Assembly: GCA_002793015.1 (NCBI GenBank)
Contig: PFPK01000022.1
Span: forward strand, 1-38,349
Origin: Candidatus Magasanikbacteria bacterium CG_4_10_14_0_2_um_filter_37_12
GTDB taxonomy: Bacteria > Patescibacteriota > Patescibacteriia > Magasanikbacterales > UBA922
DNA length: 38,349 nt
Reading direction: 5' to 3'
In this document: positions 1,686 to 25,046 of the stretch, piece after piece
Layout of the letters: each line of letters begins with the position of its first letter
Numbering within the stretch: position 1 is the stretch's first letter
Notes under the pieces: model-generated
What the model was told of the DNA's origin: nothing
What the model saw: the letters and a program-made list of their open reading frames with translations, nothing else
Database searches by the model: none
Translations under genes and position numbers: made by a program

Positions 1686-1765
1686 ATAGAACACAGATTG
1701 AACTGATAAAACTGATTAGAACAGATCTATGAAAATCTGTTAGATCTGTTAAATCTGTGTTCTAT
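1686..1765. repeat. Junction hairpin element of degenerate ACAGAT-type repeats
   Basis: Perfect 14-bp inverted repeat ATAGAACACAGATT (1686-1699) / AATCTGTGTTCTAT (1752-1765) with internal degenerate copies. Confidence 0.8.
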
Positions 1766-3141
1766 TAATTATAGAATTTAGAATTAAAATAATCTTTAAG
1801 CTCCCCAATATCCACCCTTTCTTGCTCCATCGTATCACGATCTCTCACCGTAACTTTCTTATCTTCAAGACTATCAAAATCAACAGTCACACAATATGGC
1901 GTACCAATTTCATCTTGCCTTCTATATCTTTTTCCAATACTTCCTGTTTCGTCATGCTGAGTCATCCAAGTACCACGCAAACTATTTTGAATTTCATTAG
2001 ACAAATTCTGCAATGGTTCTTTTTTAGAAAGTGGTAAAATCGCTATCTTGATTGGTGCTAGATCTTTATGAAGACGAAGAACATATTCTTTTTCATGTTT
2101 GGCGTCGTCAGAACCACTGCGAGCATCTATTTCTTCATAAGCATCAATAAGAAAAGCCAAAGTAGCCCGATCAGCTCCGTCTGAAGTCTCAACAATATGG
2201 GGAATAAACTTTTCATTTTTTTCTTGATCAAAATAACTCAAATCTTGCCCACTATATTCACTATGACGAGACAAATCCCAATTTCCTCGATCATGAATAC
2301 CTGCAAGCTCTTTGAATCCCATGCCTGGATAATTGTATTCAATATCCCAAGCTTCAGCTGCATAGTGAGCAAGTTCATCTGATTTGTGTTGTCTAAACTG
2401 CAAATTTTCTTTTTTCATTCCAAAATCCAAATACCACTGCATCCTTGCTTTTTTCCACATCTCAAAAACTTCCTTTTTTTGATCTGGATGAATGAAATAC
2501 TGTTGTTCCATTTGTTCAAACTCGCGTGTTCTGAAAGTAAAATTCCCCGGAGTGATTTCATTTCTAAAAGCCTTTCCAATCTGGGCGACACCAAATGGAA
2601 TTTTCTTTCTCATCGACTGTTGAACATTTAGAAAATTAACATAAATCCCTTGACAAGTCTCTGGTCGTAAATAAATTTGACTGGTGTTATCTTCCAATGC
2701 TCCCATAAAAGTTTTAAACATTAGATTGAACTTTCGTACATCAGTCAAATCTCCTCCACAATCTGGACAGACTACATTATGTTTATCCCACTCGCATGGT
2801 CTGAAATCTGGCTTAATTCCTTTGGCTTCTAGCAAGTGATCTGCCCTCCATCTTTTCTTACAATCTTTACAATCAACCAATGGATCAGTAAACCCAGCAA
2901 TGTGCCCACTAGCCTCCCAAGTCTTTGGATGCATCAAGATAGCAGCGTCCAATCCGACAACATCATTTCTCTCTTGCACCATCGCTTTCCACCAAGCTCT
3001 TTTTACATTATTTTTGAGCTCCACGCCAAGTGGACCGTAATCATAGCATGATGAAAGACCTCCATAAATTTCTGAAGACTGAAAGATGAAGCCACGACGT
3101 TTGGCTAGAGATACTATTGGTTCTAGATTTTCTAAACTCAT
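1765..3141 (-). CDS. glyQS: Glycine--tRNA ligase, alpha2 (homodimeric) type
   Basis: KRRGF, YDYGPLG, LRPETCQG, GKAFRNEITP and FRTREFEQME motifs, plus the C-terminal anticodon-binding domain GSIGKRYRRQDEIGTP. Start at ATG 3141. Confidence 0.97.
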   Translation of the reverse strand: MSLENLEPIVSLAKRRGFIFQSSEIYGGLSSCYDYGPLGVELKNNVKRAWWKAMVQERNDVVGLDAAILMHPKTWEASGHIAGFTDPLVDCKDCKKRWRADHLLEAKGIKPDFRPCEWDKHNVVCPDCGGDLTDVRKFNLMFKTFMGALEDNTSQIYLRPETCQGIYVNFLNVQQSMRKKIPFGVAQIGKAFRNEITPGNFTFRTREFEQMEQQYFIHPDQKKEVFEMWKKARMQWYLDFGMKKENLQFRQHKSDELAHYAAEAWDIEYNYPGMGFKELAGIHDRGNWDLSRHSEYSGQDLSYFDQEKNEKFIPHIVETSDGADRATLAFLIDAYEEIDARSGSDDAKHEKEYVLRLHKDLAPIKIAILPLSKKEPLQNLSNEIQNSLRGTWMTQHDETGSIGKRYRRQDEIGTPYCVTVDFDSLEDKKVTVRDRDTMEQERVDIGELKDYFNSKFYN

Positions 3142-3262: not shown

Positions 3263-3292
3263 TGTGGTTAATTATACCAACTATTTTATAAT

Positions 3293-3472
3293 AAAAAAAG
3301 ACAGCCAAAAATACTGTCTCGGGGTCCGATGTTACTTCGGACGGTTCCACCCGAGTTGTCCGACTTGATCTCGGACCACTCTTTGTATTTTCCACGTATA
3401 TCTGCGAATATTCCGCATTCAATCCGCATCTTTACCACCTCCACAGTTGCCAATACTGTTTCATCAGTGGTA
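3293..3472 (-). promoter_or_regulatory. Glycine T-box riboswitch with intrinsic terminator
   Basis: Antiterminator CUCGGG-UGGAACC-GUCCGA..UCGGAC-CCCGAG (3318-3355). Overlapping terminator GAGACAGU..GCUGUCUU+U-tract (3293-3320). K-turn Stem I (3433-3472) with GGC in the loop. Lies upstream of GlyRS. Confidence 0.9.
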
Positions 3473-3478
3473 TTATTT

Positions 3479-3506
3479 ATAATAACATTTTGATGAAGAA
3501 AGTCAA
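3479..3506 (-). promoter_or_regulatory. Sigma70-type promoter of the T-box/glyQS transcript
   Basis: TTGACT-16 nt-TATTAT with an extended TGn. The predicted start site falls at the base of Stem I. Confidence 0.65.
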
Positions 3507-3723: not shown

Positions 3724-3927
3724 TTATGAAATTCTGCTAACTTTAACAGCGTTCAAACCTTTTGGACCTTCAGCGACTTCAAATTCTACTTTGTCACCTT
3801 CACGAAGATCGTTGTACTCTACGTCTACAAGCTCGCTAGAATGAAAGAAAAGATCTTTCTCTTCACCTTCACGCGAAATAAAACCAAACCCCTTATCGGT
3901 AAGTCTGGCAATTATACCTTGTTGCAT
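3724..3927 (-). CDS. csp: Cold-shock domain protein (CspA family)
   Basis: KGFGFI (RNP1), DLFFHSS (RNP2) and EGDKVEFEV..GPKG..A motifs. Confidence 0.95.
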   Translation of the reverse strand: MQQGIIARLTDKGFGFISREGEEKDLFFHSSELVDVEYNDLREGDKVEFEVAEGPKGLNAVKVSRIS

Positions 3928-3929
3928 AA

Positions 3930-4036
3930 ATTGTAAAACAAATGAATAATTTACCCGCCTTGGGCGGGCTCATCAAATCCAGCATAGCCCCCACCCTGGG
4001 TGGGCGGGTCAAACTCGACTATGTTTGTTTTACAAT
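3930..4036 (-). promoter_or_regulatory. Structured csp 5' leader
   Basis: Perfect 13-bp closing stem (3930-3942 / 4024-4036) enclosing two GC-rich hairpins. Confidence 0.6.
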
Positions 4037-4054
4037 ACTGTTTTTGATGGCTAT

Positions 4055-4083
4055 ACAGTACTATATATAAAAAAATTTGTCAA
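4055..4083 (-). promoter_or_regulatory. Sigma70-type promoter of csp
   Basis: TTGACA-17 nt-TACTGT. Confidence 0.6.
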
Positions 4084-4113
4084 TAGACGACTTGGGACGA
4101 TAAGGAAATTCTA

Positions 4114-4551
4114 TTAACTCTCCAAAACCAATGTCACTGGCCCATCGTTAATCAAGCTAACCTGCATATAGGCACCAAATTTCCCAGCAGAAACTTTTAC
4201 ACCAAGCTCATCAATTTTCTTTACAAAATAATCATACAAAGGTTCAGCTACTTCTGGTCTAGCAGCATCAATAAAACTTGGCCTGTTCCCCTTTTTACAA
4301 TCAGCATAGAGGGTAAATTGTGAGACTACCAAAATGTTTCCTGCAGACTGAATGATATTGTTGTTCATCTTCCCATCTTGATCTTCAAATATTCTTAATT
4401 TCGCCAGTTTATCTACCAATTTTATGACCTGTTCTTTTGTGTCATTGTGCGTAATCCCAAGTAAAACCAAAAAACCATGGTCAATTTGACCTATGGTTTT
4501 GTTATCCACACTCACTTTTGCTTCAGAAACTCGCTGTACAACTAAACGCAT
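4114..4551 (-). CDS. dtd: D-aminoacyl-tRNA deacylase
   Basis: MRLVVQRV, LRIFED, SQFTL, GNRPSF and NDGPVT motifs. Confidence 0.97.
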   Translation of the reverse strand: MRLVVQRVSEAKVSVDNKTIGQIDHGFLVLLGITHNDTKEQVIKLVDKLAKLRIFEDQDGKMNNNIIQSAGNILVVSQFTLYADCKKGNRPSFIDAARPEVAEPLYDYFVKKIDELGVKVSAGKFGAYMQVSLINDGPVTLVLES

Positions 4552-4610
4552 ATTTTATGCTCTACACTCTTAAAATTCTTTACTACATTTCAAACAATGA
4601 GTATCTCTTT

Positions 4611-5162
4611 TTAAACAGTATATATCTCTTTCTCTTTTTCATCACCAATAATTTTTATTGTATCATTATACTCTTTGACAACCTTGTCCACTCCTTCTTG
4701 ATAGGTATATTTTTCATCTTCAGAAATCGTTTTGTCTTTTTCTGCTTTCGCAATCTCTTCACGAACTTCCTCTCGAATTTTACGAATAACAATACGAGCT
4801 TGCTCCAATTTATTGTGCAAAACCTTTATCAATTCGCTTCTTCTATCCGTTGTAAGATCAGGAAGAATAAGACGAATCATCACCCCATCATTGACTGGAT
4901 TTAAACCTAAGTCAGAGTTACGAATTGCTGTTTCAATATTTTGCAACACACCTTTGTCCCAAGGTTGAACATTGATTGTCTTGGCATCAGCTACCGAAAT
5001 AGAAGCCAAACCTTTTAATGCCTGTTTGCTACCATAGGCTTCCACCGTAAGATCCTCTACTATTGCGGGGGTAGCTCGCCCAGTTCGCAAAGAAGAAATC
5101 TCTGATTTCAAATGTTCAATGGTCTTATCAAATTTTTCTTGATTCATGCCGACAAAATCCAT
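4611..5162 (-). CDS. frr: Ribosome recycling factor
   Basis: LRTGRATP, IETAIRNSDLGLNP and ISEDE motifs. Confidence 0.96.
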   Translation of the reverse strand: MDFVGMNQEKFDKTIEHLKSEISSLRTGRATPAIVEDLTVEAYGSKQALKGLASISVADAKTINVQPWDKGVLQNIETAIRNSDLGLNPVNDGVMIRLILPDLTTDRRSELIKVLHNKLEQARIVIRKIREEVREEIAKAEKDKTISEDEKYTYQEGVDKVVKEYNDTIKIIGDEKEKEIYTV

Positions 5163-23239: not shown

Positions 23240-23312
23240 AATCTTAGTTTTCAAAGTTATTTAAGTTTGTTTAGTTTTCTAAGTTATCTTTTTAACCTAG
23301 AAACTATCCAAC
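23240..23312. repeat. Degenerate AGTTTTCTA 9-mer repeat element
   Basis: About five degenerate 9-mers followed by a short complementary arm (TAGAAACT). Confidence 0.5.
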
Positions 23313-23316
23313 AAAC

Positions 23317-23483
23317 AAAAAACTGTGGTTTTACCACAGACTTCTATAACTCTTCGACTTTATTAATTCAACTTGATTAAGCCTAGAAAACTAAATTTTC
23401 TTTGGGCTGACTCAAATCTAATTAGAGTTACCTCGGCAGGATATTTAATCCCGACTGAGTCGGGAACCTACTGTCTATGGTGC
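23317..23483 (-). promoter_or_regulatory. L10 leader (ribosomal protein autoregulatory RNA) with terminator
   Basis: CCAUAGACAGUAGGU...UUAAAUAUCCUGCCGAGG matches the L10-leader core. Terminator CUGUGGU..ACCACAG+U6 at 23317-23340. Confidence 0.85.
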
Positions 23484-23487
23484 GGAT

Positions 23488-23516
23488 ATAATACTATATA
23501 GATGAAAATTTGTCAA
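23488..23516 (-). promoter_or_regulatory. Sigma70 promoter of rplJL
   Basis: TTGACA-17 nt-TATTAT immediately before the leader. Confidence 0.75.
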
Positions 23517-24973: not shown

Positions 24974-24974
24974 G

Positions 24975-25046
24975 TAGCCCGTAGGGGAATCGAACCCCTG
25001 TTACTAGGATGAGAACCTAGCGTCCTAGCCACTAGACGAACGGGCC
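24975..25046 (-). tRNA. tRNA-Glu (anticodon CTC), CCA not encoded
   Basis: Cloverleaf GGCCCGT/ACGGGCT, anticodon arm CTAGG-TTCTCAT-CCTAG, T-loop GGTTCGATTCC; followed by CTA. Confidence 0.95.

Follow-up and report, generated by a model that had tools for sequence, protein, structure and literature searches.

The T-box riboswitches known to date are divided into four classes, in which the binding of tRNA is augmented by the IDTM (the double T-loop of Stem I, which serves as a platform for the tRNA elbow), by the S-turn of Stem II, or by both, according to the classification given in PMC10482949. According to PMC7583486, a T-box that acts on transcription cannot as a rule do without the IDTM, and one with a truncated Stem I cannot do without Stem II; the absence of Stem II from glycine T-boxes is attributed there to their strong GGC-GCC duplex (section 4.2). 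The ultrashort T-boxes are reported all to regulate ileS (bioRxiv 10.1101/2023.02.28.530422), and the class II search of TBDB took in Actinobacteria together with truncated hits of class I (PMC7778990). In our full-text literature searches, of which the larger ones were followed through their best 20-30 matches, we found no paper on a T-box from Patescibacteria, in line with the remark in a first-pass annotation of the DNA studied here that this lineage is not usually associated with T-boxes; an earlier mention is possible. Within the same scope, that of published articles, no T-box was described as lacking both the IDTM and Stem II.

The window analyzed in this work, a stretch of 38,349 nucleotides from a genome of 871 kb (Candidatus Magasanikbacteria), contains a leader of this kind. 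It lies on the minus strand, as do all features of the window given below, and runs from the beginning of Stem I at 3472 to the end of a run of seven U residues at 3293, upstream of the gene it presumably regulates, glyS (1765..3141, ATG at 3141), which encodes a homodimeric glycyl-tRNA synthetase (GlyRS) of 458 aa. The protein matches PRK04173 with 657 bits against a cut-off of 312, and its nearest named homologues come mostly from Ca. Magasanikbacteria or the Patescibacteria group (~75-82% identity). Upstream of the leader, at 3724-5162, the window contains frr, dtd and a cold-shock gene, and the adjacencies frr-glyS and dtd-glyS are found again in relatives. Rfam RF00230 matches positions 3317-3473 at a level beyond chance (41.5 bits, E 8.4e-8), but under the gathering score of 93. 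At the gathering level Rfam reports no T-box in the window, none in 10 test loci, which include the canonical control L093, and none among 41 genomes searched with RF00230; since L093, a glycine leader with a long Stem I, is also below the cut-off, the failure of the window is not specific to it. The leader fold has a z-score of -3.7, with none of 200 shuffled sequences equally stable. Taking this together with the comparisons described below, we regard the leader as a genuine T-box, which by analogy to known T-boxes would sense tRNA.

Compared to the class II leaders of the glyQS type (e.g. Bacillus subtilis glyQS, RF00230), the leader from the window shares the Gly specifier, the K-turn, a single-stranded linker that replaces Stem II, the RRRxG-Stem III-AA motif, the UGGAACC bulge, the intrinsic terminator and the association with a GlyRS gene. 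However, this minimal leader has neither the long Stem I nor the IDTM, exposes its specifier in an apical rather than an internal loop, is about half as long, uses a terminator that covers half of helix A1, begins helix A2 with a Watson-Crick pair, and is followed by a putative second promoter. The restriction of class II to glycine is true of the glyS leaders, and a threonine version of the minimal design also exists (L246, see below). With the class III ultrashort ileS leaders of Actinobacteria such as Nocardia farcinica and Mycobacterium, as described in PMC10482949 and bioRxiv 10.1101/2023.02.28.530422, it shares a short Stem I without the IDTM, a basal K-turn, and a small apical specifier loop (5-6 nt in class III) in which the codon is followed by a purine. 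On the other hand, class III T-boxes "require stem II for function", and all of them control ileS at the level of translation, whereas the minimal leader lacks Stem II and the IIA/B domain, specifies glycine and ends in a terminator. The staphylococcal glyS T-box with its stem Sa and the streptococcal glycyl T-boxes (PMC9177973, PMC11404447) likewise precede GlyRS and carry lineage-specific insertions, but by those accounts they keep the long Stem I with its AG bulge and apical loop, and the insertions that we see among the relatives of the window are sporadic and form no fixed domain. Judged by its predicted structure, the leader is thus a T-box that belongs to neither class II nor class III.

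The conservation of the leader was studied in 107 genomes of the family. A covariance model was made from a training alignment of 16 leaders, whose structure was set from the well-pairing columns (94.2% paired, with compensatory changes in 17 of 22 pairs). At the threshold of E <= 0.01 the model matches 83 of the 107 genomes, and in 66 of the 103 that possess glyS the match is directly upstream of this gene, with two more on split contigs; these counts include the training genomes. Among 65 best matches, 63 adjoin glyS by coordinates and the other two precede a glyS start. No such leader was found in 35 of the 103 genomes with glyS, some of which are truncated or gapped. The model matched 57 of 59 non-training loci, the two misses being the controls with a long Stem I (L093 and L094). 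The alignment of leaders from related genomes that had been proposed as a check bears the structure out: in the 57 held-out leaders 97.2% of the positions assigned to helices are paired and 19 of 22 pairs show compensatory changes, a level reached in none of 500 shuffles, and slid controls are 28-58% paired; the held-out sequences are related to one another and their alignment was fitted to the model. For the finer comparisons we used a strict parse of the K-turn, which 73 of 82 distinct glyS leaders passed and nine failed.

Stem I (3433..3472) comprises 40 nt, as proposed in the first-pass annotation. It consists of a canonical stem of 7 bp (3472-3466/3439-3433), a K-turn with a 3-nt bulge (3465-3463) and tandem G·A/A·G pairs followed by a third A·G pair (GAA 3462-3460 facing GGA 3442-3440), an upper stem of 5 bp (3459-3455/3447-3443), and an apical loop of 7 nt (3454-3448) that presents the glycine codon GGC at 3449..3451, with U before and A after it. 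The two helices covary in both alignments (4/4 and 5/5 pairs compensatory in the training as well as in the held-out set), and neither an AG bulge nor a double T-loop was found in Stem I. The specifier, for which the parser searched GGN only, is GGC in 68 and GGA in five of the 73 parsed leaders, and an independent MAFFT alignment of 16 leaders shows the GG conserved at the level of >=90%. The specifier is preceded by U in 63 and followed by a purine in 59 of the 73; the apical loop has 6 nt in 44 of them. In L246 (G388:C6:17454-17562), located upstream of thrS, the same K-turn hairpin carries ACC, again without Stem II, and we interpret it as a natural specifier swap of the minimal design from Gly to Thr.

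An AUG triplet overlaps the K-turn in 40 of the 73 leaders and shares the reading frame of the Gly codon in 24, as could be expected if ribosomes translating a leader peptide mediated the attenuation. However, the triplet is not AUG in the remaining 33, neither the frame nor the peptide length is kept, and the peptide predicted for the window contains no glycine. The related possibility of translational control at the glyS start meets with the lack of Shine-Dalgarno motifs and with a start codon far from the terminator. Both models, that of the leader peptide and that of sequestration of the Shine-Dalgarno sequence, were rejected on the variation of frame and length and the absence of Shine-Dalgarno-like motifs, and we give this explanation hardly any credence.

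Downstream of the linker follows the discriminator motif RRRxG-Stem III-AA, defined in PMC7583486 (3356..3382: purine string 3382-3377, Stem III 3376-3358, AA 3357-3356), and then the antiterminator (3318..3355), with helix A1 at 3355-3350/3323-3318, the bulge UGGAACC at 3349-3343 and A2 at 3342-3324. Stem III lies where the first-pass annotation had placed it, and covariation supports both elements (in the held-out alignment, 3/3 counted pairs are compensatory in the Stem III region and 4/4 in A2). The bulge is identical in all 73 parsed leaders, which were selected by that motif, so that each of them combines a glycine codon with UGGAACC; the accord between specifier, bulge and downstream gene on glycine, first observed in the window, is conserved in all three respects. 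The base pair of A2, on the contrary, is G-C in the window and G·U in the Rfam consensus. Among the 57 held-out leaders the first A2 pair is G·U in three, G-C in 22, C-G in 14 and U-A in 14, and G·U is kept in several minimal leaders from metagenomes. This G·U is termed the primary steric sensor of aminoacylation in PMC7583486 and PMC9177973; as it has mostly been replaced, and by G-C in the window, the discrimination against charged tRNA is not assured.

The UGGA of the bulge is complementary to the U73-CCA end of tRNA-Gly, and the presence of U73, given in the first-pass annotation as a bacterial feature, was confirmed both in the Gly(UCC) tRNA of the window's own genome and in the Gly(GCC) tRNAs of its relatives. 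The gene for tRNA-Gly(GCC) is absent from the window's assembly, from which the Asp and Trp tRNAs are also missing; a candidate returned by ARAGORN with relaxed settings was dismissed as a spurious pseudogene call. A strict pattern for tRNA-Gly(GCC) matched 44 of the 107 family genomes. Of 30 such loci from relatives, 28 held a Gly(GCC) gene, with U73 and the usual motifs in the D- and T-loops; the tRNA elbow being ordinary, an unusual tRNA does not account for the missing IDTM.

The leader ends with an intrinsic terminator (3293..3320) made of an 8-bp hairpin (3320-3298) and seven U residues (3299-3293). The overlapping terminator reported earlier is therefore present, but its overlap with the antiterminator is restricted to the final 3 nt of A1, i.e. 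to three of the six A1 pairs. The same 3-nt overlap was found in 62 of 70 leaders (A1 could not be parsed in three of the 73, and four mis-parsed leaders with overlap 0 were kept in the denominator). The median energy of the terminator is -9.4 kcal/mol, and -3.3 kcal/mol without the three shared A1 bases. The penalty of the antiterminator relative to the terminator has a median of 0.9 kcal/mol and is 0.9 kcal/mol for the whole leader of the window, compared to 14.6 and 15.2 kcal/mol in the long-Stem-I controls L093 and L094, and a bias of 0.5-0.9 kcal/mol is no larger than the uncertainty of such energy calculations. The minimum-energy fold combines the terminator with A2 and part of A1. In L179, L184 and L186, all of them minimal leaders, the terminator overlaps A1 fully and is favoured by 13-19 kcal/mol, and hence the minimal architecture does not depend on a balanced switch. 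Measured from Stem I to the U-run, 48 of the 70 leaders are 111-145 nt long. No Shine-Dalgarno-like motif was detected in any of 68 leaders, and the U-run is separated from the ATG by a median of 43 nt (158 in the window), with the hairpin and U-run located 13-258 nt before the ATG, which points to termination as the output of the switch.

Transcription may start from two places. The predicted promoter P1 of the sigma-70 type (3479..3506; -35 at 3506-3501, -10 at 3484-3479 or 3482-3477; 10/12 consensus) would put the start of the RNA at the base of Stem I, and in 68 of the 73 parsed leaders TTGAC is found 32-58 nt upstream of Stem I, with 50 of them having it at 32-40 nt. A promoter so close to Stem I leaves no space for a longer version of this stem. 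The putative P2 is an extended -10 motif (3271..3279) between the terminator and glyS, and such motifs occur in 29 of 68 leaders, compared with 0.76 in shuffled sequences (maximum 4 of 200). This abundance, together with the loss of the G·U sensor and the lack of the leader in 35 of 103 family genomes, is what could be expected of a degenerate or poorly discriminating attenuator, in which the terminator mostly silences P1 or the leader responds to the level of tRNA-Gly regardless of charge, and glyS is expressed via P2. One leader (L019, upstream of glyS in G096) fits this scenario, as it retains the promoter, the end of the terminator and an extended -10 motif, and its T-box body is gone, likely by deletion. 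However, the strict P2 motif is absent from 39 of the 68 leaders, in some of which just 5-16 nt separate the U-run from the ATG, and compensatory changes are dense in every helix. The latter, together with a Gly specifier and bulge that are fixed across many genera, indicates continuing selection. We therefore consider degeneration quite improbable and a working tRNA-dependent terminator the better reading.

Between Stem I and the purine string lies a linker (3383..3432) that contains a private insert of four degenerate repeat units of ~11 nt. A 6-bp hairpin is possible within the insert at 3417-3403 (-7.9 kcal/mol), and the stretch 3394-3428 had been annotated as a Stem II-like hairpin. Were it a functional Stem II bracing the codon-anticodon duplex, the leader would be a hybrid of an ultrashort Stem I, Stem II and a terminator, and there are precedents for unorthodox forms: a plain hairpin can partly stand in for the IIA/B pseudoknot (PMC7583486), and an odd Stem II is known in the streptococcal glycyl T-box (PMC11404447), though in the data presented there it gave no tRNA protection. 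Nonetheless, neither the S-turn strand AGUA nor the F-box motif CCGU(U/C) occurs in 3394-3428, and the insert is missing from nearly all relatives, including the leader of the same-genus genome G001 (L039). Between the K-turn GA and the purine string, a span that takes in the basal stem's 3' strand, the leader of the window has 56 nt, more than any other of the 70 leaders measured, whose median is 18 nt; the parser gives more than 25 nt for only three of the 70, to which L170, mis-measured by it, has to be added. Thus the linker of the family leaves no room for a domain of ~70 nt such as Stem II with IIA/B. Matches to AGUA or CCGU exist in seven linkers, all within stem strands or the purine string. 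Similar repeat units are found at the same linker position in L020 and L177 and, free-standing, in an intergenic spot of G090; there is no second copy of the insert in the window's genome, and the repeat pattern matched two of five genomes searched, the window's genome not being among them. The interpretation of the hairpin as Stem II was consequently abandoned, and we regard the hybrid as very unlikely. What stands of the atypical combination proposed in the first-pass annotation is the ultrashort Stem I with a transcriptional terminator; the hybrid with Stem II does not, as it rested on a non-conserved repeat. The glyS T-boxes of this family are devoid of both Stem II and the IDTM, and in this respect their design is more unusual than the hybrid originally suggested. 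Long palindromic inserts are seen in A2 or Stem III of L018, L028, L038, L039, L043, L156, L157, L161, L174 and L182, and it seems that small repeats often insert into the loops of these two elements.

We consider it quite likely that the leader is a minimal transcriptional glycine T-box that follows the standard logic with only two tRNA contacts, the anticodon and the 3' end. The fold, the Gly specifier, the bulge, the terminator and the absence of the IDTM and Stem II are shown by sequence and comparison; tRNA binding, charge sensing, the start sites and induction are what we infer from the known mechanism of T-boxes. According to this model, the P1 transcript would begin at Stem I, whose K-turn would present the GGC in its tip loop for pairing with the tRNA-Gly anticodon GCC, and the short A-rich linker would allow Stem III and the antiterminator to reach the tRNA's 3' end. 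With uncharged tRNA, UCCA would pair with the bulge and all six A1 pairs would be held, so that the terminator would be denied its three lowest pairs and the polymerase would continue into glyS. If the tRNA is charged, these three bases would go to the terminator and transcription would stop.

Three circumstances may explain why two contacts suffice. Firstly, the all-G-C codon-anticodon duplex could be strong enough, perhaps extended by pairing of U(-1) with A37, a contact that lies beyond the reach of covariation. Secondly, the switch would be nearly balanced, with the terminator favoured by ~1 kcal/mol versus ~15 in the two controls, and could be tipped by a short-lived tRNA complex. Thirdly, P2, located past the terminator, would provide basal glyS expression, and the switch would add only the boost upon starvation. 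Given so slight a bias of the terminator and a basal supply from P2, weak binding of tRNA would be sufficient. As for the binding itself, the B. subtilis glyQS core without the double T-loop is reported still to bind tRNA with kon halved and a main lifetime of ~29 s, but to form no ultra-stable complex (PMC5951919); a T-loop point mutant shows a ~50-fold loss of first-step affinity (PMC6197855), and a truncated Stem I by itself barely binds tRNA-Ile (PMC7583486). Such weak binding, predicted for two contacts, could also mean that the switch depends on a helper, be it a protein that binds the K-turn or another one, a pause of the polymerase, or a tertiary contact made by the ACAA that occurs in 41 of 70 linkers. 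Proteins of the L7Ae type can stabilise the K-turns of T-boxes according to PMC7583486; yet no L7Ae/YbxF homologue (PF01248) scored above the cut-off in five genomes searched, including that of the window, and the linker is variable in length, with inserts of 25-40 nt tolerated. We find a helper unlikely, if less so than any of the other alternatives, and prefer the two-contact switch that acts unaided.

A transcriptional design without the IDTM and Stem II falls outside the four classes as they are defined in PMC10482949. Whether it deserves to be regarded as a fifth natural class, i.e. a transcriptional switch of ~110-130 nt with two contacts, lacking the IDTM, Stem II and the G·U sensor, operated by a balanced exchange of three base pairs and reprogrammable by codon (Gly, Thr), is in our opinion evenly poised. 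If it does, no smaller riboswitch that senses tRNA would exist in nature, and it would be widespread in uncultured lineages under the threshold of Rfam. The family would break two rules at once, namely the need for the IDTM in transcriptional T-boxes and the need for Stem II when Stem I is truncated, and has mostly dropped the G·U sensor as well, with strong selection on each helix that is left; its natural sequences make testable how small an RNA can be and still sense uncharged tRNA as it is transcribed, whether a strong codon can take the place of Stem II, and how aminoacyl-tRNA is rejected. It would also follow that Patescibacteria, with their reduced genomes, keep the tRNA-sensing control of synthetases (as suggested by leaders of glyS, thrS, ileS and valS), unseen at the Rfam cut-off. 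In addition, the leader may be a convenient small framework on which to engineer sensors of tRNA.

Beyond the family, a search of the order gave matches in two other families, one with 37 of 59 genomes matched and the other, weakly, with four of seven, and no match in seven small families. Matches were obtained in 48 of 151 genomes of a class sample and in 24 of 151 of a phylum sample; those inspected are mostly thrS or valS leaders, the minimal glyS leaders being L203, L218, L234 and L244. A pattern scan of metagenomes gave at least 120 matches, mostly due to chance, and 32 of the 120 listed pass a pairing filter; at least 25 of these 32 precede a GlyRS start as read from the open reading frames by eye, and four are chance matches, and three further GlyRS leaders failed the filter. 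Viral contigs gave no match to the single consensus pattern used. Six of the metagenomic minimal glycine T-boxes (L287, L292, L307, L333, L358 and L386) are purine-rich just before the ATG, mostly without a U-run near the antiterminator, and are possibly translational versions.

Other T-box designs were encountered in the relatives. Stem II and the IIA/B domain are recognisable in their ileS leaders, and leaders of ileS- or valS-like genes with a short Stem I, Stem II, an IIA/B-like region and a U-run (L006, L007, L010, L011, L013, L201, L211, L222, L255 and L256) are the real hybrids, as opposed to the glyS leader of the window; only L006 passed the strict Stem II pattern, and the others were judged by eye. 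A second unusual design, mostly before thrS (L196-L199, L204, L206-L209, L212, L214-L217, L220, L221 and L223-L231), has a hairpin of 5-6 bp with ACC in the tip loop, followed by one or two hairpins inside a junction that is closed by a short basal helix, without the IDTM or a canonical Stem II; its first gene is sometimes dtd, GNAT-like, Nudix-like or metK-like. In L232, L233, L235, L236, L238, L239, L240 and L243 a small hairpin or pseudoknot-like element follows the short Stem I. The only other T-box found in the window's genome (L002, G000:C8:6162-6330) precedes thrS and keeps a hairpin that resembles the double T-loop. In its relatives L200, L202, L205 and L210 the ACC codon is located in a separate side hairpin, and this type is a possible intermediate between the long and minimal forms.

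Three further features deserve mention. A gene for tRNA-Ile with the UAU anticodon, a tRNA rare in bacteria, lies elsewhere in the genome of the window (G000:C21:15964-16037). The window itself contains a tRNA-Glu(CUC) gene at 24974-25046 and, before rplJ, an L10 leader (RF00557) at 23308-23498, which with 44.3 bits is just above the Rfam cut-off of 44 and carries an insert of ~54 nt.
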